From the sequence record NC_055781.1: 64,000 nucleotides of DNA, one strand, 5' to 3'. The notes under the pieces are model-generated. The model searched no databases, was not told the DNA's origin, and worked only from the letters and a program-made list of their open reading frames with translations. Positions 4,697-52,650 of this stretch are shown piece by piece (the stretch's first letter is position 1; every line of letters starts with the position of its first letter). Position numbers and translations under genes: made by a program. This stretch comes from Escherichia phage p000v.

Positions 4697-4728
4697 ACAA
4701 ACTCTTGAGAGCAGAGTATAATGCTCTC
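4697..4728 (+). promoter_or_regulatory. promoter module, copy 1: AAACTCTTGAGAGCAGAG-TATAAT-GCTCTC (repeated at ~49641)
   Basis: perfect TATAAT lying in the loop of the 6-bp inverted repeat GAGAGC/GCTCTC; an identical ~30-nt sequence recurs upstream of ndd. Confidence 0.45.
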
Positions 4729-4759
4729 GTTGGATAATAAAATAACAGAGGAAAATAAT

Positions 4760-5092
4760 ATGTCTACTAAAATCAAAAACGTAGTGAACTCTTTCGCTTT
4801 CGATAAAGTTGTTAGTCTTCTAGAAAAAGGTGGTATTGTTACTCCTCAAGTTCTTGACGCGTGGGAATTCCGTCTTTATGAAATCATGCAAAAACACGAC
4901 CAGAAAATTGGACGTAATTCTATTCGTGAAATTCTAGTACAATATATTCTTTCTGAATTTGACGTTGCCGCATTTGGTGTTGAATCTAAAGCTTATCAGA
5001 AACATGAAATCTCTGAAAAAACTATCCGTCGTATGAAAAATCAACGTAAGAAAAAATTCGCTGACTTGAAAATTGTTAAGGCGGTAAAATGA
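4760..5092 (+). CDS. hypothetical protein
   Basis: ATG with AGGAAAATAAT RBS; 110 aa. Confidence 0.4.
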   Translation: MSTKIKNVVNSFAFDKVVSLLEKGGIVTPQVLDAWEFRLYEIMQKHDQKIGRNSIREILVQYILSEFDVAAFGVESKAYQKHEISEKTIRRMKNQRKKKFADLKIVKAVK

Positions 5093-16592: not shown

Positions 16593-17228
16593 ATGAAAAC
16601 TACACCAATCACTATCGCTATTGACGCAATCGTAAAACAAGCTTCATCTCTTGCCACTATGGCTAAAGTAATTAGTCAAAACTCTGCCCGATATAATGCT
16701 ATTCTTGAAACTCTTCGTCGCCCTGGACTGAGTAATTATGAAAGCCGAGTAATTATTACAGGTGTTGGTAAGAACGCTAATATCGCAACTAAAGCTTCCG
16801 AGACTTTTGCTTCACTAGGTATTCCTAGCATGTATTTGAACACCGGGCATTATTCTCATGGCGACGCAGGATTTATTGCACCTAATGATGTATTAGTTCA
16901 CATCAGTCGTTCTGGTAAGACTGAAGAAATGATAGGTGTTGCTAAACATCTTCGTATGATTCGTCCTCAGGTTAAACAGATTCTGTTACATTGTAACCCT
17001 GACATTCCGCAAGAATACGAAGCTCTTTTTGATTATACGTTCTGTACAGGCATCGCGGTAGAGGTTGATGAGAATTCTCTGGCTCCGACCATGTCCACTA
17101 CATTGTTGTTAGCGCTTATCGATACGTTTGCTATCAACCTTTCGTCTGAACGTGGATTTACCTCTAATGACTTCCTTAAGTTCCACCCTGGTGGTGCACT
17201 AGGTGCCATGTTACGAGGCGAACAATGA
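16593..17228 (+). CDS. SIS-domain sugar-phosphate isomerase, arabinose-5-phosphate isomerase-like (KdsD/GutQ N-domain type)
   Basis: 211 aa; VIITGVGKNANIA, HISRSGKTEE and C-terminal HPGGALG motifs typical of A5P isomerases; no CBS domains. Confidence 0.75.
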   Translation: MKTTPITIAIDAIVKQASSLATMAKVISQNSARYNAILETLRRPGLSNYESRVIITGVGKNANIATKASETFASLGIPSMYLNTGHYSHGDAGFIAPNDVLVHISRSGKTEEMIGVAKHLRMIRPQVKQILLHCNPDIPQEYEALFDYTFCTGIAVEVDENSLAPTMSTTLLLALIDTFAINLSSERGFTSNDFLKFHPGGALGAMLRGEQ

Positions 17229-17368
17229 AAGCAATAACAATAGGACTTTTACTATTGATGCTTGTCATGACTATCTACTGGAGCTTAACGGCTCCAGTAA
17301 TGATTCCGACTCTTATAATCGGATGGATTATGATTGGACTACAAGCAAAGTATGAATGCTTTAACTAG
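17225..17368 (+). CDS. small two-helix membrane peptide (47 aa)
   Basis: ATGA overlap with isomerase stop; MKAITIGLLLLMLVMTIYWSLTAPVMIPTLIIGWIMIGL; below ORF-track cutoff. Confidence 0.35.
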   Translation: MKAITIGLLLLMLVMTIYWSLTAPVMIPTLIIGWIMIGLQAKYECFN

Positions 17369-17381
17369 AATAGTGTACAAT
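17357..17381 (+). promoter_or_regulatory. MotA-dependent middle promoter upstream of the nucleotidyltransferase-kinase gene
   Basis: TGCTTTA box, 12-nt spacer, TACAAT -10; 28 nt before the ATG at 17410. Confidence 0.5.
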
Positions 17382-17409
17382 ACACCTACTTACCAATGAG
17401 GACTTCAAC

Positions 17410-19095
17410 ATGAAAAAAGCTGTTATTCTTGGTGCTGGACTGGCAACTCGTTTGTATCCAATAACGCACCATATTCCTAAGGTGCTTGTTAACTATAAAC
17501 AAGACACTATTCTGAGCAATTTGTATACAATTTATTCTGACCTTGGCGCAGATGAAATTATTGTAGTAGTTCATTCAAAATTTGCTGAAACTGTTCGAGC
17601 TTATTGCGAGCAAGAAGGGTTCAATGTGACTATTCGTACAGTTGATGAAGCGTATGGTTCTGCTTATGCTCTTGCTAAATTATACAAAGATTTAGATGGC
17701 CATAACGTAATTGTTAACTGGTGTGATATTATTCCTGACTTTGGTTCATGGTCTTGGAATGTTAACGCAATCTATGTTAAGGGTGATGAATGTCGATATA
17801 ATTTCGATGGTGAAAATATCACTAACGTAGGTTCAACAGGTGGTAATGTTGTAGGAATTTATCAGTTCAAAGACTGGGAATTCTACATGGGTTCTACTGA
17901 TGAGGAAATTCACGAATACTGCAAAGGTCGTGATTTCGTAGAATTCCTTTACGGCAGTGCATTCAATAAATCAGAGCTTATGAATCTAATTGATTTAGGT
18001 GATATGCCTAAACTTGAAAAGGCTCATGAAGTTCGTGAACTGAATCGTAGTTTTAATGCAGTTGAAATTGGCGAAGAAACTGTAACTAAATTCGCGTTAA
18101 CCGAACAAGGTCGAGCTCTTCAAAAAGATGAGATTTCATGGTATTTGAAAGTGAAATCAGATTCAGTTCCTCAGTTAGTTTCGGTAAATGAAAATAATTT
18201 TGAAATGGAACGTATTAAAGGTAAGCCGGCATTTGAATATATTAAATCCAAATCAAGTCTTGCTCGTCCACAAATTGTTGATGCAATTTTAGATGCACTG
18301 AAATTCAGCACGGACACTTATTTTGTAAGTCCTGAAACTGTTCGCCGTGATTTCACTAAAGAGTTCTATACGAAAGTTATTGATCGTTGTGAAAGCATTC
18401 AGCCATTGATTGATTCATTTGGTAAAATCACACGTGTGAACTACACTAAGATTGGACGTCTGAAGCCAATGTTGAAACAAGCTTTAGAACATCTTATTCG
18501 TTATCATAACCGTTCTCAGGGACAGTACTCTGTTATTCATGGTGACCCGAACTTCAGTAATACTATGATTACCGATAACGGCGAAGTCAAGTTTATCGAC
18601 CCTCGTGGATATTTTGGTGAAACCAAGATTTACGGGCCAAAATTGTATGATGAAGCTAAAGTGCTTTATGCTGTTTCAGGTTATGATGAATTCAATGCTA
18701 ATCCGACCTGGGGTCAGTTTACTATTGATGAAACAACTTGTAATGTGACTATTAACATCAATCCATTAGTTTACAAATATGGAAAGATGAGTTCGTTTAA
18801 CGAGTATCATCATTTGGCAGTAGCAATTATCTGGATTGCATTAGGTGGTTATTTCAAGAATAATCCACTTAAAGCGGTTGCCGCATATTATAAAGGTATG
18901 GAACTTCTGACTAAGCAATTACGTAACATGGGCCGTGTACTTCAAGACGGCTCTATTAGTTATGACGTAGCAGAACCTGTAACGGCTACTCTGATTACAA
19001 AAAATCCTGGTAAATGGGTACTAACTGATAAAGAAACTGGTGTTTCCTATCGTCCAATCGGCGGCGATATCACTCATCAATGGGAACGAATCTAA
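17410..19095 (+). CDS. bifunctional sugar-1-phosphate nucleotidyltransferase (N-terminal) / sugar kinase of APH-choline-kinase type (C-terminal)
   Basis: 561 aa; N-terminal KKAVILGAGLATRLYPIT (G-x-G-T-R-L-x-P-x-T nucleotidyltransferase signature); C-terminal HGDPNFSNTMI...IDPRG catalytic-loop-like motifs. Confidence 0.7.
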   Translation: MKKAVILGAGLATRLYPITHHIPKVLVNYKQDTILSNLYTIYSDLGADEIIVVVHSKFAETVRAYCEQEGFNVTIRTVDEAYGSAYALAKLYKDLDGHNVIVNWCDIIPDFGSWSWNVNAIYVKGDECRYNFDGENITNVGSTGGNVVGIYQFKDWEFYMGSTDEEIHEYCKGRDFVEFLYGSAFNKSELMNLIDLGDMPKLEKAHEVRELNRSFNAVEIGEETVTKFALTEQGRALQKDEISWYLKVKSDSVPQLVSVNENNFEMERIKGKPAFEYIKSKSSLARPQIVDAILDALKFSTDTYFVSPETVRRDFTKEFYTKVIDRCESIQPLIDSFGKITRVNYTKIGRLKPMLKQALEHLIRYHNRSQGQYSVIHGDPNFSNTMITDNGEVKFIDPRGYFGETKIYGPKLYDEAKVLYAVSGYDEFNANPTWGQFTIDETTCNVTININPLVYKYGKMSSFNEYHHLAVAIIWIALGGYFKNNPLKAVAAYYKGMELLTKQLRNMGRVLQDGSISYDVAEPVTATLITKNPGKWVLTDKETGVSYRPIGGDITHQWERI

Positions 19096-19538: not shown

Positions 19539-20699
19539 ATGAATACTTTTAAAATCGGAACGAATTTTGATTTAGCTCTTCTTGATAAAATCGTAGAGCT
19601 CAATAAAACCTATCCTAATAGCTTGATAAACGAAGTATATGGCTCTACAAGAGAAATGGCTTTTGTAGCAGCCAGACCTGATTTTAGGCTTCCTGACGTT
19701 GACAAAAAGATGTTAGAAGACTACGTTAAACGTTGTAACGAATTAGGTATTTGCTTTAACTATACACTCAACACGATAAATCCTGGTTCAAAAAGAGAAC
19801 TAGTTGAGTGGAAGAAGAAAGCTATTCAGGATTATGTTCAGTATCTTTGGTCAATAGGCGTATGGCGTATTACTATCGCTAACCCTGTTGTTATGGAAAT
19901 TGTTCGTGAAGTCAATAAAGATATTGAGATTGAAGTTTCAACAATTCTACATGTCGATGCGGTAACTCAAATCAAATACTTACATGACCAATATAACATC
20001 AAAAAGGTCTGTTGCGGAATTCATAAGAACCGTTCAGTTTCTTTCCTGAAGCGTGCAGCAGAGTTTTGCAATAAGAACAATATAATATTTGAAGTTCTTG
20101 TAAATGAGTTCTGTTCTAATGCTGGTAAAGGGTATACAACACATTGTAGTTATCGTGACTCTTGCTATATTTTCCATAGTACTGATGTTACCGCTGATGA
20201 TGCTAAATCCTTAAATGGATATCCTATGCAGCACTGTATTAAAGCTCGTGATACAGACCCATTTAACTGGTTGAGAACTCGTTTTGTTCGTCCTCAAGAT
20301 TTGAAACTTTATAATGATATTGGTATCACTCAATTCAAAGTTTCAGGACGTACAGGTAGCACAGACTACATTTTGAAAGTTCTTGAAGCATACGCTTCTG
20401 AAAAGTTTGAAGGTAATTTGTTAGAACTGTGGAAGCCTTTAGAGACTATTTTCACTCTTGAAAATGAGACTGAGTTTTCACATACAGTAAATATTGAAAC
20501 CTCTTTGTTAGATGGCTTTTTAGAAAAAAGGTGGTTCAGACATCCAGATTTTGATTGTGCTAATGAAATCTGTGGGTCAACGTGTACATATTGTGAAAGG
20601 TATTATAAACGTCAATTATCTAAAAACGGGTTAGCAGAAAACTCCATATCTATTATTGATATAACTAACTCTGATGACGCTTTGAGGTACCCGGAATGA
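19539..20699 (+). CDS. Cys-rich protein, possible U32-family TIM-barrel/Fe-S enzyme
   Basis: 386 aa; motif order FKIGTNFD, NEVYGS, YTLNT, EVLVNEFCSNAGKGYTTHCSYRDSC resembles peptidase-U32 signatures by eye; C-terminal CANEICGSTCTYC Cys4 cluster. Confidence 0.35.
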   Translation: MNTFKIGTNFDLALLDKIVELNKTYPNSLINEVYGSTREMAFVAARPDFRLPDVDKKMLEDYVKRCNELGICFNYTLNTINPGSKRELVEWKKKAIQDYVQYLWSIGVWRITIANPVVMEIVREVNKDIEIEVSTILHVDAVTQIKYLHDQYNIKKVCCGIHKNRSVSFLKRAAEFCNKNNIIFEVLVNEFCSNAGKGYTTHCSYRDSCYIFHSTDVTADDAKSLNGYPMQHCIKARDTDPFNWLRTRFVRPQDLKLYNDIGITQFKVSGRTGSTDYILKVLEAYASEKFEGNLLELWKPLETIFTLENETEFSHTVNIETSLLDGFLEKRWFRHPDFDCANEICGSTCTYCERYYKRQLSKNGLAENSISIIDITNSDDALRYPE

Positions 20700-26207: not shown

Positions 26208-26226
26208 GGAGACTTCGGTCTCCTTT
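26208..26226 (+). terminator. intrinsic terminator (GGAGAC-ttcg-GTCTCC then TTT)
   Basis: UUCG tetraloop hairpin right after the gene 41 stop. Confidence 0.55.
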
Positions 26227-26230
26227 CGGG

Positions 26231-26260
26231 GTTTACATCTTCCTCTAGGCATGATATGAT
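26231..26260 (+). promoter_or_regulatory. T4-type early promoter (GTTTAC -18- TATGAT)
   Basis: consensus-like -35 and -10 upstream of ORF 26290. Confidence 0.45.
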
Positions 26261-26289
26261 GTACTTACACTAACCAAGAGGAAAACATT

Positions 26290-26664
26290 ATGAATATGTC
26301 TCAAGCAATTTTTACTGCAATCACCGAAAACACAACTGTTGAAGTAGTTTCTCCGCTGGCAACCTACGTTATTCTTGCTCCTAAATCTATTGTATCTCGT
26401 ATGGAAAACATGGGCAAACGTATCGTACAAATCGTTGGAGCCGGAAATCAAAAACTTGATTATCTGCGAACCATCAAAGCTTATGAACATTTCCAACTCG
26501 AAAAAGGTTCTCCCATCCAGGTAGAACTCGTAAATGGTGATATCGTTCGAGCAATGTTCCATCATTTCTATGCATTGAATGACCCATCTAAAGCGGTTCG
26601 TTTAATTGCATACGACGCAAACCAAAACGAAATCAACGCAGATATATCTAAATTACGTTTTTAA
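26290..26664 (+). CDS. hypothetical protein
   Basis: 124-aa ORF. Confidence 0.4.
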   Translation: MNMSQAIFTAITENTTVEVVSPLATYVILAPKSIVSRMENMGKRIVQIVGAGNQKLDYLRTIKAYEHFQLEKGSPIQVELVNGDIVRAMFHHFYALNDPSKAVRLIAYDANQNEINADISKLRF

Positions 26665-27976: not shown

Positions 27977-28011
27977 GTTTACATTATAGATGGACTATAG
28001 TATAGTAGTCC
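27977..28011 (+). promoter_or_regulatory. T4-type early promoter (GTTTAC -18- TATAGT) with inverted repeat GGACTA/TAGTCC around the -10
   Basis: upstream of ORF 28036. Confidence 0.45.
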
Positions 28012-40123: not shown

Positions 40124-40303
40124 ATGCCGTTATACGACTATAAATGCCAATCTGAAGATTGTGGTCATGAATATGAAAAAATTAAAAGGATTTCTGAACG
40201 AGAAAACGATGTTTGCCCTGAATGTCATCGTCTGTCTACTCGTCGGGTTTCTGCTCCTAAACATGTGAACGGTGGTTTTTACGACTTACTTAAAAAGGGT
40301 TAA
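40124..40303 (+). CDS. zinc-ribbon protein (FmdB-like, 59 aa; below ORF-track cutoff)
   Basis: MPLYDYKCQSEDCGHEYE...CPECHRLSTRR: CxxC-x17-CxxC; starts 3 nt after upstream stop. Confidence 0.5.
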   Translation: MPLYDYKCQSEDCGHEYEKIKRISERENDVCPECHRLSTRRVSAPKHVNGGFYDLLKKG

Positions 40304-48374: not shown

Positions 48375-48851
48375 ATGAAGGTTAAGATCGCTGATACTGC
48401 TCGGTACTCGTTGAAACAAGATCCAGGTCAAATAAAAGAAGACGTTGTTCGACGTTGTAAGGTTGCAGTCTTTGCAGAGTATGTAGTAGCAAATTGGCTA
48501 GACGGATATGTTAATAAAGGTAATGAAGACGTAGAAGACCCGTACACGTATGCATGGGACGTTTTAGCTCATCCTAAGTACTGTGGTCTACGCATAGAAG
48601 TAAAGACCCATCAGATGGATTCGAAATGGATTTCGGTTACCACAGGATACAGTGGTGATTATCCGGGTGGTAACGGAATCAACATAGGGCCCTTCTTGAA
48701 CCATCGAGTCGCTGACTGTATTATTATATTGAATGTCAAAGAAACCTCACCTGACGTCTTCTCTTATTCTATAAAGTTCGTGGGAGACCATGAAGACCTA
48801 AAGAAAATCGTCCGCAAGAGCAACTACAACGGATGGTATCTTCATCTTTAA
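48375..48851 (+). CDS. hypothetical protein, possible PD-(D/E)xK nuclease (T4 denB position)
   Basis: about 158 aa from internal ATG; AWDVLAH...RIEVKTH resembles a D...E-x-K nuclease core. Confidence 0.3.
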   Translation: MKVKIADTARYSLKQDPGQIKEDVVRRCKVAVFAEYVVANWLDGYVNKGNEDVEDPYTYAWDVLAHPKYCGLRIEVKTHQMDSKWISVTTGYSGDYPGGNGINIGPFLNHRVADCIIILNVKETSPDVFSYSIKFVGDHEDLKKIVRKSNYNGWYLHL

Positions 48852-48863
48852 TTTCATAAAAGT

Positions 48864-48900
48864 GTTTACAACTAAGTAGGACTATGATATAGTAGTCCTA
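48864..48900 (+). promoter_or_regulatory. early promoter (GTTTAC -18- TATAGT) with inverted repeat TAGGACTA/TAGTCCTA
   Basis: upstream of ORF 48920. Confidence 0.45.
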
Positions 48901-48919: not shown

Positions 48920-49183
48920 ATGAAATTTAAATTTTTCTACGCAAAACATAAAGTAACAGGCGAATTTGTTTCAATGTACAACACTGCAGATGACGAAGGG
49001 ATGATTTATACCCATTTGGGTCTATCTCATTGGGACTCGGACGTGCCTTATATGTCATCTGAAGCCGAAATAACTCGTTTAGTTAACGGACATATGAACG
49101 ACCATTTTGGTGTTATTCTTTCTAAAGACCTTAAAGAGGTTATCAACAAAGGATATATGGAACTCGCGGAAGTTGAGATATGA
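48920..49183 (+). CDS. hypothetical protein
   Basis: 87-aa ORF with AAGAGGATAACATC RBS. Confidence 0.4.
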   Translation: MKFKFFYAKHKVTGEFVSMYNTADDEGMIYTHLGLSHWDSDVPYMSSEAEITRLVNGHMNDHFGVILSKDLKEVINKGYMELAEVEI

Positions 49184-49266
49184 GCTCTAAAATGTGGATC
49201 GGAATATGGTTGCTTAGTATCCCAATGATTTGTATAATATTTTCAATTGTGTTGAGGTACTTATGA
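49180..49266 (+). CDS. micro-ORF, hydrophobic peptide (28 aa)
   Basis: MSSKMWIGIWLLSIPMICIIFSIVLRYL; ATGA overlap with upstream stop. Confidence 0.25.
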   Translation: MSSKMWIGIWLLSIPMICIIFSIVLRYL

Positions 49267-49373
49267 AAAATGCACTTCTTATTGTACTAAGAACAATTTG
49301 TGATACGGGTTTTTACATTGCATGTTCGTTCACTGGAACATGGTTGGCTTTAACATATTTTAATGTAATTTAA
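49263..49373 (+). CDS. micro-ORF, hydrophobic peptide (36 aa)
   Basis: MKNALLIVLRTICDTGFYIACSFTGTWLALTYFNVI; ATGA overlap with the previous micro-ORF. Confidence 0.25.
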   Translation: MKNALLIVLRTICDTGFYIACSFTGTWLALTYFNVI

Positions 49374-49375
49374 TT

Positions 49376-49415
49376 GTTTACAACACAGTAGGATTATGGT
49401 ATAGTAGTCCTACTG
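49376..49415 (+). promoter_or_regulatory. early promoter (GTTTAC -18- TATAGT) with inverted repeat CAGTAGGA/TCCTACTG
   Basis: upstream of ORF 49435. Confidence 0.45.
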
Positions 49416-49434
49416 AAACATGAGGAATACAAAA

Positions 49435-49635
49435 ATGGCTAAGCTTTTTAAAGATGTTGAAATTGGTGAAAAATTCGTCCTGAATAATGGACAGCAGCTT
49501 ATTCGTGTAGCTTCTATAGCCGGACAAACTCATAACTGTATCGCCCCAACGTGTTGGACTCGATTCTTTATTGAAGATGACACTGAATGTTTAACTGTTG
49601 AAGAGCTTTTTGAACGTTCTGATATAGCCGAATAA
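49435..49635 (+). CDS. hypothetical protein
   Basis: 66 aa from ATG after GAGGAATACAAAA RBS. Confidence 0.4.
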   Translation: MAKLFKDVEIGEKFVLNNGQQLIRVASIAGQTHNCIAPTCWTRFFIEDDTECLTVEELFERSDIAE

Positions 49636-49637
49636 AA

Positions 49638-49674
49638 TTGTACAAACTCTTGAGAGCAGAGTATAATGCTCTCA
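49638..49674 (+). promoter_or_regulatory. promoter module, copy 2: TTGTAC -18- TATAAT inside GAGAGC/GCTCTC inverted repeat
   Basis: about 30 nt identical to 4697..4728; upstream of ndd. Confidence 0.45.
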
Positions 49675-49711
49675 TGGATTACAAAAACATTAATCAATTG
49701 AGGAAATTAGC

Positions 49712-50158
49712 ATGTCCAAATATTTAACTCGTAAAGACCTTCTGGCAGTTGGTGGTGAAGTTGTTGCAGTAGTTCGTAATGGCGAATACGGTTCTGAAGT
49801 TTCTAAAGAGTTTCGTTCTCGTGAAGGTTTTTACTTCTTCGTTAAAGGTTCATCTGACTGGCGACAAGTAGCAGCACGATTCTTTGTAGGACGTCAACGT
49901 TCTAAACAAGGGTTAGATGCAATTCTTTCTCACATTCGTCAAGGCCGTTCACAACTCGCCCGTACTATGGGCACTAACAATATTGAATATGATGTAATCT
50001 TTGTTTCAGCTAAGAACATGAAACCTCTGACTACTGGTTACGGTAAAGGACAATTGGCTCTAGCGTTCACTCGCAACCATACATCAGAATATCAAACACT
50101 CACTGAAATGAACCGTCTTCTGGCCGATAATTTCAAATTCATTCTGCAGAGTTACTAA
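49712..50158 (+). CDS. ndd: nucleoid disruption protein Ndd
   Basis: 148 aa; region [29 protein letters not shown] and C-terminal [10 protein letters not shown] match T4 Ndd as recalled. Confidence 0.65.
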
Positions 50159-50165
50159 TTTATAC

Positions 50166-50198
50166 AGGCCTATTAAGTTAGGCCTTTAATTTATTTTT
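50166..50198 (+). terminator. terminator-like hairpin (AGGCCTA-ttaagt-TAGGCCT) with T-rich tail
   Basis: 7-bp stem followed by TTAATTTATTTTT after ndd. Confidence 0.45.
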
Positions 50199-50210
50199 GA
50201 GGTAATTAAA

Positions 50211-50357
50211 ATGGTAGCATGGATTATTGCATTGCTGTGTTGGTCGTTTTTATTCGTTAACACTTTAGTTACAGGCGAAACAACAGTACTTCAACAGGCC
50301 GTATCACAAGGTACCTTAGCGGTCTTAGCTCTTCTTAACGTATTAAAAGGCGAGTAA
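50211..50357 (+). CDS. small membrane peptide (48 aa), ac-like position
   Basis: MVAWIIALLCWSFLFVNTLVTGETT...; GAGG RBS; between ndd and 52, where T4 has ac/stp. Confidence 0.35.
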   Translation: MVAWIIALLCWSFLFVNTLVTGETTVLQQAVSQGTLAVLALLNVLKGE

Positions 50358-50497
50358 TGATTAAGAAAATCTTAGCAGGAGCCTTAGGGCTCTTGTTGTT
50401 GCTTACGGTTCTGTACTACGGTGTGATGTTTGGACTAATCCAAGTAGTGCTTTTCATTTCAGATGTTATAATGGATATTCGTTCATTAATATGGTGA
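50357..50497 (+). CDS. small membrane peptide (46 aa)
   Basis: MIKKILAGALGLLLLLTVLYYGVMFGLIQVVLF...; TAATG overlap with the previous peptide gene. Confidence 0.35.
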   Translation: MIKKILAGALGLLLLLTVLYYGVMFGLIQVVLFISDVIMDIRSLIW

Positions 50498-50501
50498 AAA
50501 T

Positions 50502-51827
50502 ATGCAATTGAATTCTCGTAATCTAAAAAGTATTATTGATAACGAAGCCTTAGCATATGCGATGTACACCGTTGAAAACCGTGCAATCCCAAACATGATT
50601 GATGGATTTAAGCCGGTTCAACGTTTTGTGGTTCATCGTGCATTAGATTTGGCTCGTGGTAATAAAGAAAAATTTCATAAACTTGCGTCAATTGCAGGCG
50701 GTGTCGCAGATTTAGGTTATCACCATGGTGAATCTTCTGCACAAGATGCAGGTGCATTAATGGCTAACACATGGAACAACAACTATCCACTGTTAGATGG
50801 TCAAGGCAACTTTGGTTCTCGAACAGTCCAAAAAGCTGCAGCATCTCGTTATATTTTTGCTCGTGTAAGTAAAAATTTCTATAACGTATATAAAGATACT
50901 GAATATGCTCCAGCTCATGAAGATAAAGAACACGTTCCACCAAAATTCTATCTTCCTATTATTCCGACAGTTCTTTTGAATGGCGTCTCTGGTATTGCAA
51001 CCGGTTACGCAACAAATATTCTGCCTCATAGTTTTAAATCGGTAAAAAAGGCTGTATTACAAGCTCTTCAAGGTAAAAATGTCACTAAGCCAAAAGTTGA
51101 ATTCCCGGAATTCCGTGGTGAAGTGCATGAAGTTGATGGGCGTTATGAGATTCACGGAACATATAAGTTCACATCTCGTACTCAAATGCAGATAACTGAA
51201 ATCCCATATAAATTCGACCGTGAAACGTATGTGAGTAAGGTTCTCGACCCGTTGGAAGACAAAGGTCTAATCTCATGGGAAGATGATTGTGGTGAACACG
51301 GCTTTGGGTTTAAGGTGAAGTTCCGTAAAGAGTACTCGCTTCCTGATGATGAAGAGCTACGTCATGAAAAAATCATGAAAGATTTTAGTCTCATCGAACG
51401 TCGTTCACAAAACATCACAGTGATTAATGAAAAGGGTAAATTAGCTGTCTATGATAACGTAGTGGACTTAATCAAAGATTTTGTTGAAGTCCGTAAGACT
51501 TACGTTCAGAAACGTATTGACAACAAAATCCTTGAATCTGAAAAAGCATTTAAACTGGCTTTTGCTAAGGCACACTTCATCAAAAAAGTTATCAACGGTG
51601 AAATTGTGATTCAGGGCAAGACTCGTAAAGCTTTGACTGAAGAGCTAGCACAAATCGAAATGTATAAAGAACATGTCGATAAACTGGTAGGTCTTAACAT
51701 CTTCCATATCACTTCCGATGAAGCACGTAAACTAGCAGAAGAAGCTAAAGCTAAGAAAGAAGAAAATGAGTATTGGAAGTCTACTGATGTTGTGACAGAG
51801 TACACTAAAGACTTGGAGGCACTTTGA
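50502..51827 (+). CDS. 52: DNA topoisomerase II medium subunit gp52 (GyrA-like)
   Basis: 441 aa; N-terminus with PNMIDGFKPVQR motif typical of type IIA topoisomerase A subunits. Confidence 0.9.
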   Translation: MQLNSRNLKSIIDNEALAYAMYTVENRAIPNMIDGFKPVQRFVVHRALDLARGNKEKFHKLASIAGGVADLGYHHGESSAQDAGALMANTWNNNYPLLDGQGNFGSRTVQKAAASRYIFARVSKNFYNVYKDTEYAPAHEDKEHVPPKFYLPIIPTVLLNGVSGIATGYATNILPHSFKSVKKAVLQALQGKNVTKPKVEFPEFRGEVHEVDGRYEIHGTYKFTSRTQMQITEIPYKFDRETYVSKVLDPLEDKGLISWEDDCGEHGFGFKVKFRKEYSLPDDEELRHEKIMKDFSLIERRSQNITVINEKGKLAVYDNVVDLIKDFVEVRKTYVQKRIDNKILESEKAFKLAFAKAHFIKKVINGEIVIQGKTRKALTEELAQIEMYKEHVDKLVGLNIFHITSDEARKLAEEAKAKKEENEYWKSTDVVTEYTKDLEAL

Positions 51828-51904
51828 GTGCCCTAGCCTTAGGATTTCTCGGTGCAATAGCTGCACTAGTGATTTGGCTGTATTGGTTGGACAAACATGA
51901 TTAG

Positions 51905-51923: not shown

Positions 51924-51944
51924 GTGCATTTTTCTCACAAAACA

Positions 51945-51973
51945 GTTTACACGTGCTTCAAACATGATATTAT
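51945..51973 (+). promoter_or_regulatory. early promoter (GTTTAC -17- TATTAT) upstream of motA
   Basis: consensus-like elements 45 nt before the motA ATG. Confidence 0.5.
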
Positions 51974-52017
51974 AAACCTATCAAAACAAAACAAAACAAC
52001 CGAATTGGAGAAATAAA

Positions 52018-52650
52018 ATGTCTAAAGTTACTTACATCATCAAAGCTTCTGAAAACGCTCTGAATGAAAAAACTGCTGCAATAATGGTTTATATCATTAA
52101 GAACAACTTCACCACTGCTGCCAATGTCCGTGAAGCTCTGGAAGCAGAATACAATGCATCAGTTGTTAACTCTAACATCGGTGTATTGATTAAGAAAGGT
52201 TTAGTCGAAAAATCAGGTGATGGACTTGTAGCAACAGGCGAAGCAATGGATATTATCCAAAAAGCCGCAGATCTATTTGCTCAAGAAAATGCTCCAGAAC
52301 TTCTTCAGAAACGTAACACTAGAAAAGCACGTGGAGTTACTCCTGAAATGCATGAATTAGCAAACTTTGTTTTTGAAAATATTAAAGATAAAGTTGAAGT
52401 TAAAGAAATTGGTGAAAACCGTAGTAACTTAGAAGTTCGATTTGCAAAACGAGTTCTAGGTATTCGTCAGATCGAAATTCGTCGAGATGGCGCTCTTAGA
52501 ATCTTTGCATACAACATGTCAGAAACTGAATCAAAGCTGTTTACTTCTCTTGAAAATGATGTTAAGATTAAGATCGGTGGTAAATATACTTACATTGACT
52601 TCCCTAATGTGTCCAAAGAAATCATTACCCTTGTAACTAACGTACTGTGA
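52018..52650 (+). CDS. motA: middle-transcription activator MotA
   Basis: 210 aa (T4 MotA is 211); N-terminus MSKVTYIIKAS and SNIGVLIKKGLVEKSGDGL match T4 MotA as recalled. Confidence 0.8.
   Translation: MSKVTYIIKASENALNEKTAAIMVYIIKNNFTTAANVREALEAEYNASVVNSNIGVLIKKGLVEKSGDGLVATGEAMDIIQKAADLFAQENAPELLQKRNTRKARGVTPEMHELANFVFENIKDKVEVKEIGENRSNLEVRFAKRVLGIRQIEIRRDGALRIFAYNMSETESKLFTSLENDVKIKIGGKYTYIDFPNVSKEIITLVTNVL

Follow-up and report, generated by a model that had tools for sequence, protein, structure and literature searches.

Background

In bacteriophage T4, the 'D region' between rIIB and gene 52 carries a number of small membrane-peptide genes. Early, non-essential small membrane proteins are the least understood part of T4 biology, and among the peptides considered here a phenotype is available only for Ac: T4 ac mutants, the missense G38R included, resist acriflavine, and E. 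coli is sensitised when Ac is expressed alone (bioRxiv 10.1101/2025.06.30.662393). In the same preprint a block of AcrAB-TolC efflux by T4 Ac is put forward as a proposal, on indirect evidence; older work, as summarised there, took the action of Ac as a change in membrane permeability. Another T4 peptide, Stp (26 aa), is an activator of host PrrC, and is encoded in the same genome interval as ac in T4, phage Ac3 and Dhakavirus. The T4 transcripts orthologous to those discussed below are classed as early in PMC9697503 (Table S2), where shotgun proteomics failed to detect the T4 Ac, 52.1, Stp and Ndd.2-Ndd.6 proteins. Such an outcome is to be expected of peptides so small and hydrophobic, yet it is still absence of evidence.

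Two types of described regulatory elements are of interest for the same region. PeSLs (promoter-early stem-loops; Arbiol 2010, PMC2839356; Comeau 2014, PMC4122927) are repeated units of about 54 nt, composed of an early promoter and a stem, which lie on either side of a small variable cassette within a hyperplastic region; the PST/T4-type consensus is TTTACW-N17-TAYWAT, with an AGNA-loop-TCNT stem (PMC4122927). Middle promoters feature a MotA box with core TGCTT, located 12 +/- 1 bp upstream of a TAnnnT -10 element (PMC2988021). For one of them, T4 P52, the start site is mapped at 165227, printed as 65227 in Table 1 of PMC2988021.

Organization of the locus

The stretch of 64,000 nt analysed here, indicated as the window, belongs to a Mosigvirus, i.e. 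an RB69-like T4-type phage, and shows 98.6% identity to Shigella phage SHSML-52-1. Its gene order, rIIB-denB-...-ndd-ac-52.1-52-motA, is shared by T4 and RB69. Four small ORFs are found on the + strand, at 49180-49266 (28 aa), 49263-49373 (36 aa), 50211-50357 (48 aa) and 50357-50497 (46 aa). A preliminary description, made from the sequence alone, had reported these four frames as two overlapping pairs, arranged for translational coupling and related to the small membrane-peptide genes of the T4 D region; all of this is confirmed. In the first pair, the stop of the 28-aa ORF and the start of the 36-aa ORF share the ATGA at 49263-49266; in the second, the stop of the 48-aa ORF and the start of the 46-aa ORF form the TAATG at 50355-50359, with one common base at 50357. 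A further ATGA (49180-49183) joins the stop of an upstream 87-aa ORF to the start of the 28-aa ORF, and the ATG of gene 52 follows the stop of the 46-aa ORF by 4 nt. The overlapping or abutting stop-start arrangement of the coupled pairs is kept in other genera too.

Three larger genes provide the context. A homologue of ndd.1 (49435-49635, + strand; phrog_2183), annotated as such in RB69, precedes the nucleoid-disruption gene ndd (49712-50158, + strand), which has 61% identity to T4 Ndd, is annotated as ndd in relatives and is used below as a control for selection. Gene 52, encoding the topoisomerase II medium subunit and annotated in relatives, lies 3' of the second pair (50502-51827, + strand). 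The T4 genes ndd.2-ndd.4 are absent from the window. In the preliminary description the micro-ORFs were assigned to the interval corresponding to the T4 ndd-52 one, where T4 ac and stp do lie: the placement is correct for the second pair, while the first sits between denB and ndd. The four frames had also been called unannotated, which does not apply to the second pair, annotated as ac and 52.1 in RB69 and most relatives, and only partly applies to the first: LH01 and vB_EQ1 have an annotation for the 36-aa ORF, and phage 55 for both members. These are, in other words, known genes, and most of them already appear in the annotations of relatives.

Taken as a whole, expression and function included, the explanation that the micro-ORFs are genuine early genes, namely ndd.6, a genus-specific gene at the ndd.5 position, ac and 52.1, with an additional 47-aa ORF as a member of the 42.1 family, is considered highly probable.

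Conservation of the reading frames

The presence of the ORFs and their hydrophobicity are not, by themselves, above chance. The six frames of the window contain 253 ATG-ORFs of 25-60 aa, 2-21% of which are as hydrophobic as the peptides under study; since hydrophobicity does not discriminate among these small ORFs, it was dropped as an argument. It is conservation that lifts the four ORFs above chance. The preservation of the frames in relatives, on which the preliminary description had staked its reading, was found: all four are intact in 10 out of 10 Mosigvirus loci, with no frame-breaking change, and the single indel in the 1.6 kb compared across these loci is intergenic. Each ORF matches a PHROG family from end to end, and in the ndd.6, Ac and 52.1 families both frame and length persist over 5-10 genera. 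No match was found for any of the peptides in sequence searches of NCBIfam and PDB; a literature search on ndd.x and gp52.1 only matched papers on neurodevelopmental disorders, and one on ribosome profiling of T4 gave no relevant results.

Synonymous sites are saturated in comparisons between genera (pS 0.5-0.8): cross-genus dN/dS was therefore set aside, and the information comes from pN alone and from the less diverged T4-Dhakavirus pair. For 52.1, pN is 0.17-0.20 against T4 and Dhakavirus and reaches 0.43 against more distant genera; for ndd.6 it is 0.27-0.40, the corresponding range for the known protein Ndd being 0.26-0.33. In terms of amino-acid divergence, ndd.6 and 52.1 do not exceed Ndd, while Ac diverges faster. 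Within Mosigvirus, the third-position bias is weaker in all four ORFs than in ndd.

These data bear on the possibility that the four are chance open frames in AT-rich spacers, lying in DNA conserved for promoters, terminators and leaders rather than for peptides. Short hydrophobic ORFs are indeed frequent in the window, regulatory elements are present throughout the locus (two PeSL-like promoters, a hairpin, and a P52 counterpart inside 52.1, all described below), the T4 proteins have escaped proteomics, and the substitution pattern of the 36-aa ORF is not clearly coding. Frame and length, though, are kept across genera despite saturation of the synonymous sites, pN is well under pS in most pairs, and every one of the four matches a family profile over its entire length. 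In a densely packed genome, the ORFs moreover fill gaps of 251 and 343 nt, and do so on the coding strand; for ac, both missense and knockout phenotypes are described in T4, and Ac has an effect also when expressed alone. For the set of four, an origin by chance is thus extremely improbable, and the reading as genuine genes is retained.

The ac gene

By membership in phrog_2501 and by a conserved glycine, the 48-aa ORF (50211-50357, + strand) is identified as the orthologue of T4 ac, encoding the acridine-sensitivity membrane protein: it is ac itself, and not just one of the 'functional analogues' of T4 small peptides suggested in the preliminary description. The family is matched over residues 1-48 with an E value of 2.7e-21 (2.2e-25 for T4 Ac), and an iterated local profile unites the window and T4 proteins, recovering Ac in 6 genera, always with a length of 47-52 aa. 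In RB69 the gene is annotated as 'Ac acridine resistance protein'.

The window Ac shares with T4 Ac the family, the location between ndd and 52.1/52, and the overlap with the start of 52.1. The size is similar, 48 aa as opposed to 51, and so is the predicted fold: AF2 places helices at residues 2-21 and 25-46 of the window protein, separated by a break, and a helix-break-helix is predicted by ESMFold for T4 Ac too (bioRxiv 10.1101/2025.06.30.662393). The SQAxxQG core is conserved, and includes the glycine changed in G38R, which corresponds to G34, in the SQG motif, of the window Ac. There are differences as well. Direct comparison of the two proteins by phmmer gives an E value of only 4.7e-4, against a small local ORF set; the window Ac is closer to those of phage Ac3 and Jiaodavirus, which bear the TGETSV motif missing in T4. 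The overlap between ac and 52.1 is 1 nt long (TAATG) in the window and 8 nt long in T4, and the position 5' of ac, taken by stp in T4, is occupied here by a hairpin. A family motif, TGETSVxSQAxAQGTL, is found across the 6 genera: a diverged, yet clearly orthologous Ac, with this better-conserved motif, offers a useful contrast for mutagenesis.

As to function, the window Ac probably blocks AcrAB-TolC efflux, by analogy with what is proposed for T4. E. coli AcrZ is a 49-aa inner-membrane helix, which binds AcrB. Its likeness to Ac is in working principle only, both being helical membrane peptides of about 50 residues, with an action on AcrB that for Ac is a proposal; sequence searches of PDB found no similarity of Ac to AcrZ or to AcrB complexes. 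The other T4 peptide of the interval, Stp, has no counterpart: a six-frame search of the whole window for Stp-like peptides (phrog_6763) gave no match at E <= 0.1, the best one (E 0.27) being located elsewhere. Stp is also hydrophilic (GRAVY -1.0), in contrast with the hydrophobic peptides of the window.

The ndd.6 gene and the 36-aa ORF

The first cassette opens with an 87-aa early gene (48920-49183, + strand; phrog_2390), hypothetical in all relatives checked (RB69ORF270c in RB69), whose stop overlaps the start of the 28-aa ORF. In Dhakavirus and phage Ac3, homologous ORFs of 85-88 aa stand in front of ndd.6 and overlap it by ATGA in the same way; T4, in contrast, lacks this gene, so that the coupling of ndd.6 to an upstream frame of this kind distinguishes the window from it.

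On the evidence of family and motif, the 28-aa ORF (49180-49266, + strand) is the orthologue of T4 ndd.6, with a predicted single transmembrane helix. It matches phrog_8851 over positions 1-28 of 28 (E 3.7e-11; 1.6e-17 for T4 Ndd.6), has the same length as the T4 peptide (28 aa), and shares its motif, MSSKxWCxIWxxxIPxIC; in both phages a small hydrophobic ORF follows, with an ATGA overlap. Iterated profile searches recovered ndd.6 in 5 genera: the length is 27-29 aa in Mosig-, Tequatro-, Dhaka- and Gelderlandvirus, while in Kanagawavirus the match could be retrieved only as part of a 76-aa frame. Within Mosigvirus, the peptide is identical in 9 of the 10 copies.

The 36-aa ORF (49263-49373, + strand; phrog_18561) is, in contrast, an orphan restricted to Mosigvirus, and its support comes from within the genus only. 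It occupies the position of T4 ndd.5, and overlaps ndd.6 by ATGA as T4 ndd.5 does. Homology to T4 ndd.5 or ndd.2 was considered and rejected, as phmmer, iterated profiles and PHROGs gave no signal. T4 Ndd.5 (32 aa) belongs to a different PHROG, phrog_5011, and no match between this family and the 36-aa ORF was found in either direction: the ORF is a positional analogue only. The size given is that of the ATG-start form, preceded by a strong Shine-Dalgarno (SD) site, GAGG (-6.9 kcal/mol); a TTG-extended form of 47 aa, starting at 49230, also exists and, used as a query, retrieved only 3 clusters, with at least 92% identity, among 5.8e9 proteins. Hydrophobicity is moderate (GRAVY 1.07, a value equalled or exceeded in 13% of the null set). 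The frame is intact, and 36 aa long, in 10 out of 10 Mosigvirus loci, which differ by about 5 synonymous and 5 non-synonymous changes (4, 1 and 5 variable sites at the three codon positions). For this ORF alone, then, a chance open frame is a less probable reading which nevertheless deserves real weight.

The 52.1 gene and its embedded promoter

The 46-aa ORF (50357-50497, + strand) encodes gp52.1, a DUF7396 protein of family phrog_3595, predicted to form one long hydrophobic helix (residues 2-45 in the AF2 model, pLDDT 96.8). It matches Pfam PF24129 over positions 1-46 of 46, with an E value of 4.8e-23 and a score of 81.5 bits, the gathering cut-off being 27 bits. T4 gp52.1, also in PF24129 and phrog_3595, has the same length of 46 aa, the same 4-nt gap to gene 52 and the same embedded MotA-box promoter; the two peptides match by phmmer with E 1.3e-16, and their minor residue differences are limited to the N-terminal third. 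An iterated profile recovered 52.1 in 10 Tevenvirinae genera, with a length of 44-46 aa in nine of them; in Winklervirus it was recovered only inside a 79-aa frame. As many as 20 of the 46 residues are invariant, with an invariant core, LYYGVMFGLIQVVLFISDVIM. T4 and Dhakavirus, the informative pair, differ by 13 synonymous and 3 non-synonymous changes in this gene.

A regular expression search located a MotA-box middle promoter inside 52.1, at 50448-50472 on the + strand, the counterpart of T4 P52: TGCTT lies at 50448-50452, a 12-bp spacer follows the box, and TATAAT is found at 50467-50472, with a predicted start near 50479. When the sequences are aligned, the mapped T4 start (PMC2988021) also falls inside 52.1, 7 nt past the equivalent -10 element. 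Among 14 genomes, representing 10 genera, 13-14 conserve TGCTT and TAnnnT. The invariant core of gp52.1 coincides with this promoter.

Synonymous variation is lower within the promoter, affecting 3 of its 8 codons, as opposed to 11 of 13 upstream. The embedded promoter, and not the peptide, may account for part of the conservation of gp52.1, and the overlap between core and P52 advises caution against taking this conservation as purely peptide-driven. In the first 29 codons, outside the promoter, synonymous sites vary freely, while residues are kept.

The position of 52.1 relative to its neighbors is also conserved. The distance to gene 52 is 4 nt here and in T4; in other genera the two overlap by up to 7 nt or are up to 11 nt apart. 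Among the genera examined that have 52.1, all but Gelderlandvirus, where the pairing is not evident, show an overlap of 1-8 nt between this gene and an upstream small membrane ORF, although the partner varies. It may then be asked whether the frames, above all 52.1 in front of gene 52, are translated only as coupling devices or as a cover for the mRNA, with functionless peptide sequences. The retention of overlaps or short gaps in nearly every genus examined, even where the upstream partner of 52.1 differs, would suit such a role, as would the weak SD sites of ndd.6 (-3.6 kcal/mol), 52.1 (-4.2 kcal/mol) and gene 52 (-2.8 kcal/mol), and the presence, at the same overlapping position, of a 36-aa ORF and of a T4 ndd.5 unrelated in sequence. 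A mere spacer, though, would not hold 20 invariant residues out of 46, nor would the Ndd.6 motif be held over five genera; the residues of the first 29 codons of 52.1 are kept where synonymous sites are free to change, and the T4 Ac phenotype depends on the peptide, as shown by G38R. Coupling without peptide function is thus quite unlikely, and functional peptides are the preferred reading.

Promoters and expression

Two PeSL-like elements, both on the + strand, bracket the first cassette. Element 1 (48847-48900), a T4-type early promoter found by promoter scan and regular expression, features GTTTACA at 48864-48870, a 17-nt spacer and TATAGT at 48888-48893, with a stem-loop formed by TAGGACTA..TAGTCCTA; it fits the PeSL consensus. 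Element 2 (49359-49412), recognized by scan, regular expression and repeat as an early promoter for ndd.1-ndd, features GTTTACA at 49376-49382 and TATAGT at 49400-49405; the 36-aa ORF extends into it by its final 5 codons. The two constitute a 54-nt direct repeat, with 83% identity. Size, composition and location around a small variable cassette recall the known PeSLs; in these, however, the stem is upstream of the promoter, while here it encloses the -10 box. A terminator-like hairpin (50166-50185, + strand), AGGCCTA-TTAAGT-TAGGCCT followed by a T-rich tail, lies between ndd and ac, and is annotated as an ARNold terminator in phage ATK47. Promoter scan and regular expressions revealed no sigma-70 or MotA-type promoter between this hairpin and ac, from which expression of ac and 52.1 by read-through is inferred.

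The arrangement is most likely to produce helical inner-membrane peptides, translated by coupling from early polycistronic mRNAs. According to this scheme, host RNA polymerase would start at the strong promoter at 48864-48893, so that the 87-aa gene, ndd.6 and the 36-aa gene share a single mRNA; the second early promoter (49376-49405) would serve ndd.1-ndd, and read-through of the weak hairpin would extend transcription to ac-52.1-52. Ribosomes ending one frame would restart on the next at the ATGA and TAATG overlaps. Later in infection, the MotA-dependent middle promoter in the 3' part of 52.1 would allow expression of gene 52 alone. The products would be helical peptides of 28-48 residues, inserted in the host inner membrane. 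SD sites of the four ORFs (-6.9 kcal/mol for the 36-aa ORF and, with GAGG, for ac; -4.2 for 52.1; -3.6 for ndd.6) are all stronger than the random mean (-1.6). Restart at the overlaps may explain why the weakest sites are those of ndd.6 and 52.1, two frames that start at an overlap; the 36-aa frame does so too, yet keeps a strong site.

Possible functions of the peptides

For ndd.6, the 36-aa peptide and gp52.1, analogy suggests, as the most likely mode of action, a single-helix peptide binding and modulating an inner-membrane protein of the host or of the phage.

An action on the membrane in general, instead of specific binding, may also be envisaged, by depolarising or pore-forming peptides, or by exclusion factors like T4 Imm/Sp or type I toxins. 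Size, hydrophobicity and early timing fit, one family of similar peptides (42.1, see below) is coupled to imm, and Ac itself was taken, in the older work, as changing membrane permeability; on the other hand, Ac expression in E. coli is drug-specific and not generally toxic, according to the discussion of the preprint, where impaired efflux is blamed for stronger killing by acriflavine and ampicillin (bioRxiv 10.1101/2025.06.30.662393), and Pfam, NCBIfam and PDB reveal no similarity to known toxin, holin or exclusion families. A general membrane action is rather unlikely. This alternative bears on function alone, and does not conflict with the genes being real.

Within the preferred reading, specific binding, a broader and admittedly speculative extension, which we would not expect to hold in full, is that Ndd.6, the 36-aa orphan, Ac, gp52.1, 42.1 and the TTG-start ORF described below constitute a repertoire of single helices, each aimed at a different inner-membrane machine of host or phage, in analogy with the action proposed for Ac on AcrB; gp52.1 would be dual-use, its invariant V-L-F-I-S-D-V-I-M core being fixed jointly by peptide function and P52, and the coupling to gene 52, found universally, would point to some part played alongside the membrane-associated topoisomerase or replication complex.

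Other small ORFs of the window

The similar 47-aa peptide gene noticed elsewhere in the preliminary description (17225-17368, + strand) is present, and belongs to the T-even '42.1' family (phrog_3610, E 4.5e-27). Its start overlaps, by ATGA, the stop of an upstream arabinose-5-P isomerase gene; the peptide probably folds as a two-helix hairpin. The family was found by tblastn in 574 phage records, annotated as 42.1 in RB32, SP18_gp046, and, in a shorter form, RB69ORF054c; T4 holds an intact copy of 49 aa. The motif MIPTxIxGW..LQxKYECxN is common to RB32 42.1, SP18_gp046 and the T4 ORF, all of which overlap an upstream stop; in these three phages the family is coupled to imm, which encodes a superinfection-immunity membrane protein.

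Of the other hydrophobic small ORFs, the one at 20104-20214 was rejected, as it lies off-frame inside a 386-aa gene, and the one at 40167-40268, in a 185-nt gap, has neither an SD site nor a family, and is doubtful as a gene. A hydrophobic candidate of 26 aa with a TTG start (51824-51904, + strand) overlaps the stop of gene 52 by TTGA, as a positional analogue of T4 motA.1. No PHROG family matches it; the frame is intact, with its TTG, in 10 out of 10 Mosigvirus copies, with GGAGG 6 nt upstream, and in nearly all other genera a hydrophobic ORF starting with ATG is located at the stop of gene 52 or overlaps it.

In the RB69 reference and in several of the relatives' records checked, ndd.6, the 36-aa gene, the full 47-aa form of RB69ORF054c and the TTG-start ORF are missing or truncated: restoring them is a small but concrete improvement of the annotation, chiefly in the way of correction and tidying up.

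Identity and arrangement of the small reading frames

The four small open reading frames are all present in the window, on the + strand: those of 28 and 36 aa at 49180-49266 and 49263-49373, those of 48 and 46 aa at 50211-50357 and 50357-50497. They occupy two coding-strand gaps, of 251 and 343 nt, which are otherwise devoid of genes. The overlaps reported in the preliminary description are confirmed: the 28-aa stop overlaps the 36-aa start (ATGA, 49263-49266), and the 48-aa stop shares one base with the 46-aa start (TAATG). In addition, the stop codon of an 87-aa frame overlaps the start of the downstream 28-aa frame (ATGA, 49180-49183), and the ATG of gene 52 is found 4 nt past the stop of the 46-aa frame. 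Shigella phage SHSML-52-1 shares 98.6% identity with the region, and about 150 further Mosigvirus (RB69-like) genomes share 96-98%. The gene order of the region (rIIB, denB, 87-aa gene, 28- and 36-aa frames, ndd.1, ndd, 48- and 46-aa frames, 52, motA) is that of the T4 "D region".

The 28-aa frame aligns end to end with phrog_8851 (E 3.7e-11); T4 Ndd.6, also of 28 aa, is a member of this family. The 48-aa frame falls into phrog_2501 (E 2.7e-21), as does T4 Ac (2.2e-25). The 46-aa frame scores 81.5 bits against Pfam DUF7396 (cut-off 27) and is assigned, like T4 gp52.1, to phrog_3595. For the 36-aa frame the sole match is phrog_18561; it takes the same overlapping position after ndd.6 as T4 Ndd.5 (phrog_5011), to which no similarity is detectable. 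No sequence resembling Stp is found anywhere in the window.

The frames had been described as unannotated, which is largely wrong: RB69 and most relatives carry the 48-aa frame as "Ac acridine resistance protein". The suggestion of functional analogues of known small peptides pointed in the right direction and was understated, these being the known genes themselves. Useful by-products are annotation corrections and a number of side observations.

Conservation and selection

In an AT-rich genome, neither hydrophobicity nor the presence of an ORF is by itself evidence for a gene; the window contains 253 ORFs of 25-60 aa, 2-21% of which are as hydrophobic as the micro-ORFs. Conservation of the frames in relatives, proposed as a check in the preliminary description, is observed: all are intact in 10 Mosigvirus loci, where the sole indel across 1.6 kb is intergenic, at 49431. 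In two Mosigvirus genomes (L006 and L036) the ac stop is changed from TAA to CAA (equivalent to window 50355): Ac becomes one residue (Q) longer and the TAATG overlap with 52.1 turns into ATGA, so that the coupling geometry is preserved.

Iterated profile searches over 36 loci extended the survey to other genera. Ndd.6, with the motif MSSKxWCxIWxxxIPxIC, has 27-29 aa in Mosig-, Tequatro-, Dhaka- and Gelderlandvirus; in Kanagawavirus the match lies within a longer, 76-aa frame. Ac is found in six genera (47-52 aa, motif TGETSVxSQAxAQGTL), the T4 protein being the divergent member. gp52.1 is found in ten genera, in all but one with 44-46 aa; the Winklervirus match lies within a 79-aa frame. Between genera, synonymous sites are saturated (pS 0.5-0.8). 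Non-synonymous divergence of 52.1 is 0.17-0.20 versus T4 and Dhakavirus and at most 0.43 versus Moonvirus; the T4 and Dhakavirus copies are separated by 13 synonymous and 3 non-synonymous changes. Values for ndd.6 (0.27-0.40) may be compared to those of the control protein Ndd (0.26-0.33), while Ac evolves faster (0.35-0.54). Such conservation of frame and residues across genera excludes, for three of the four, that they are chance ORFs in regulatory spacers; for ac, T4 genetics does so too.

The 36-aa frame is the weak member of the four. Its length is constant, yet it is confined to Mosigvirus, forms 3 clusters at 92% identity or above among 5.8 billion proteins, and shows about 5 synonymous to 5 non-synonymous substitutions in the 10 Mosigvirus loci. 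Here a chance ORF is unlikely, though a good deal less so than for the others.

A predicted middle promoter within 52.1

A predicted MotA-box middle promoter, TGCTTTTCATTTCAGATGTTATAAT, is located inside 52.1 at 50448-50472 (+), with the canonical 12-bp spacing (consensus in PMC2988021). For the T4 middle promoter P52, the start has been mapped to 165227 (Table 1 of PMC2988021, where it appears as 65227); in the alignment, it falls 7 nt past the equivalent -10 box within T4 52.1. The window promoter is orthologous to the mapped T4 P52, and would serve gene 52. TGCTT and TAnnnT are retained in 13-14 of 14 genomes, from 10 genera, and TGCTT...TATAAT occupies the same stretch as the invariant peptide core VLFISDVIM. 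Synonymous variation is seen in only 3 of the 8 degenerate codons of the promoter stretch, GTG, CTT, ATT, GAT and GTT being without it, versus 11 of 13 in codons 1-29 of 52.1. The core is therefore under two constraints at once. Outside the promoter, codons 1-29 keep their residues while synonymous sites vary, indicating that the gp52.1 peptide is also under selection.

A 47-aa protein from an ENA metagenome contig (P0019) features residues 1 to about 15 of a T4-type Ndd, fused in-frame to residues from about 15 to 46 of gp52.1. This corresponds to a natural loss of ndd-stp-ac in which the P52-bearing part of 52.1 is retained.

Expression signals

Two strong early promoters of T4 type (GTTTACA-N17-TATAGT) are found at 48864-48893 and 49376-49405 (+). 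Each lies, along with a stem-loop, in one of two 54-nt direct repeats, 83% identical, at 48847-48900 and 49359-49412 (+), which bracket a cassette formed by the 87-aa gene, ndd.6 and the 36-aa gene. In both, the -10 box is enclosed by the stem TAGGACTA..TAGTCCTA: the repeats fit the promoter-early stem-loops (PeSL) of T4-type phages (PMC2839356; PMC4122927). A third early promoter in the window, at 27977-28006, has the TATAGTAGTCCTA tail in common with them.

A candidate hairpin terminator is located 3' of ndd, at 50166-50185. Because no promoter was found between this hairpin and ac, we infer that ac and 52.1 are expressed by read-through. In T4, transcripts of ac, 52.1, ndd.2-ndd.6 and motA.1 are classed as early, and the orthologous small proteins were undetected by mass spectrometry (PMC9697503 Table S2).

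The Shine-Dalgarno sequences of the 36-aa and 48-aa frames are strong (-6.9 kcal/mol, a value reached by about 2% of random positions). Weaker ones are found at 52.1 (-4.2 kcal/mol) and ndd.6 (-3.6), where the start overlaps a stop, which is what coupled re-initiation would allow; the 36-aa frame is an exception, its overlapping start having a strong Shine-Dalgarno. Translation of the micro-ORFs might serve purely as a coupling device, as the conserved overlaps and changing partners would fit; the invariant residues, however, do not.

Predicted structure and function

AlphaFold2 predicts gp52.1 as a single continuous helix (residues 2-45, pLDDT 96.8). For the Ac orthologue, modeled from a shallow alignment (pLDDT 73.9), two helices (2-21 and 25-46) are separated by a break at G22-T24; a two-helix ESMFold model has likewise been reported for T4 Ac. 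No relative with a solved structure was found.

Among the small peptides, function data exist for Ac alone. Acriflavine resistance in T4 results from ac knockouts and from the G38R substitution; Ac alone, in E. coli, raises acriflavine sensitivity about 1000-fold, and ampicillin sensitivity too, and the T4 protein was proposed to reside in the inner membrane and impair AcrAB-TolC efflux (bioRxiv 10.1101/2025.06.30.662393), an idea restated as an assumption in PMC13250531. The T4 G38 equivalent, G34 in the window Ac, is conserved, and the chances that the latter acts by the same mechanism may be put at about even. The favoured reading of Ndd.6, the 36-aa peptide and gp52.1 is a similar mode of action, with a helix that would bind a specific inner-membrane partner; possibly, the peptides are instead membrane-active in general, rather than specific binders.

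The 47-aa frame and the modification cluster

The 47-aa frame at 17225-17368 (+) is also real, its start overlapping by ATGA the stop of the upstream gene. It belongs to phrog_3610, corresponds to RB69ORF054c, RB32 gene 42.1 and SP18_gp046, and has tblastn matches in 574 phage records. RB69ORF054c is annotated as 36 aa, from an internal ATG. The 47-aa form (2226-2369 in the RB69 locus L037) is favoured on three counts: its Shine-Dalgarno is better (-5.9 versus -3.9 kcal/mol), it overlaps the upstream isomerase gene by ATGA, and other genera have matches over its full length.

An intact 49-aa ORF of the same family (phrog_3610, E 1.2e-25) is present in T4 strain wild (KJ477684; locus L040, 644-793), at about 26213-26362 on the minus strand, without annotation in that record. 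The imm stop and this ORF share an ATGA overlap, within the so-called imm-42 intercistronic region, and the mapped T4 P42 start (26320, reference numbering) would fall within it. In the window, a MotA-box-like motif, AATGCTTTAAC...TACAAT (17355-17381, +), where the 47-aa frame ends and just upstream of a 561-aa gene, is by pattern match a possible second middle promoter inside a micro-ORF. The surrounding segment (16593-19095, +) follows DNA polymerase gene 43 and includes an arabinose-5-phosphate isomerase (SIS) gene and the 561-aa nucleotidyltransferase/kinase-like gene: relatives' annotations identify it as the arabinosyl-hydroxymethylcytosine modification cluster that is characteristic of RB69-like phages.

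Other small frames and the gene 52-motA interval

Two + strand genes are separated by a 185-nt gap that holds a 33-aa ORF (40167-40268, +), hydrophobic in its C-terminal half. With neither a Shine-Dalgarno (-1.0 kcal/mol) nor a PHROG family, this ORF is unlikely to be a gene. In L006, an IMG/VR Mosigvirus contig, the 87-aa gene is interrupted by a nonsense codon, W38* (equivalent to window 49031-49033), and ndd.6 is fused into an 83-aa frame in one T4-like contig (L016, 1540-1791): these may reflect either genes that are dispensable in nature or errors of assembly.

A 26-aa hydrophobic ORF, MSALALGFLGAIAALVIWLYWLDKHD, is found at 51824-51904 (+). It starts with TTG, overlapping the gene 52 stop (TTGA), with GGAGG 6 nt upstream and a hairpin terminator directly 3'. 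No PHROG family was found for it, nor any annotation in the records checked; TTG and frame are intact in 10 of 10 Mosigvirus copies. In nearly every other genus a hydrophobic ORF with an ATG start (T4 motA.1 and analogues) is located at, or overlaps, the gene 52 stop.

Finally, SHSML-52-1, LH01 and phage 55 (loci L001, L003 and L035, about 4723-4958) have about 235 bp of additional sequence, bearing a 71-aa gene, in the interval from gene 52 to motA; it is absent from the window (compared at 51935-52017), from RB69 and from one IMG/VR contig. A repeat flanks this segment, window 51935-52083 matching twice in each of the three phages, consistent with repeat-mediated gain or loss.
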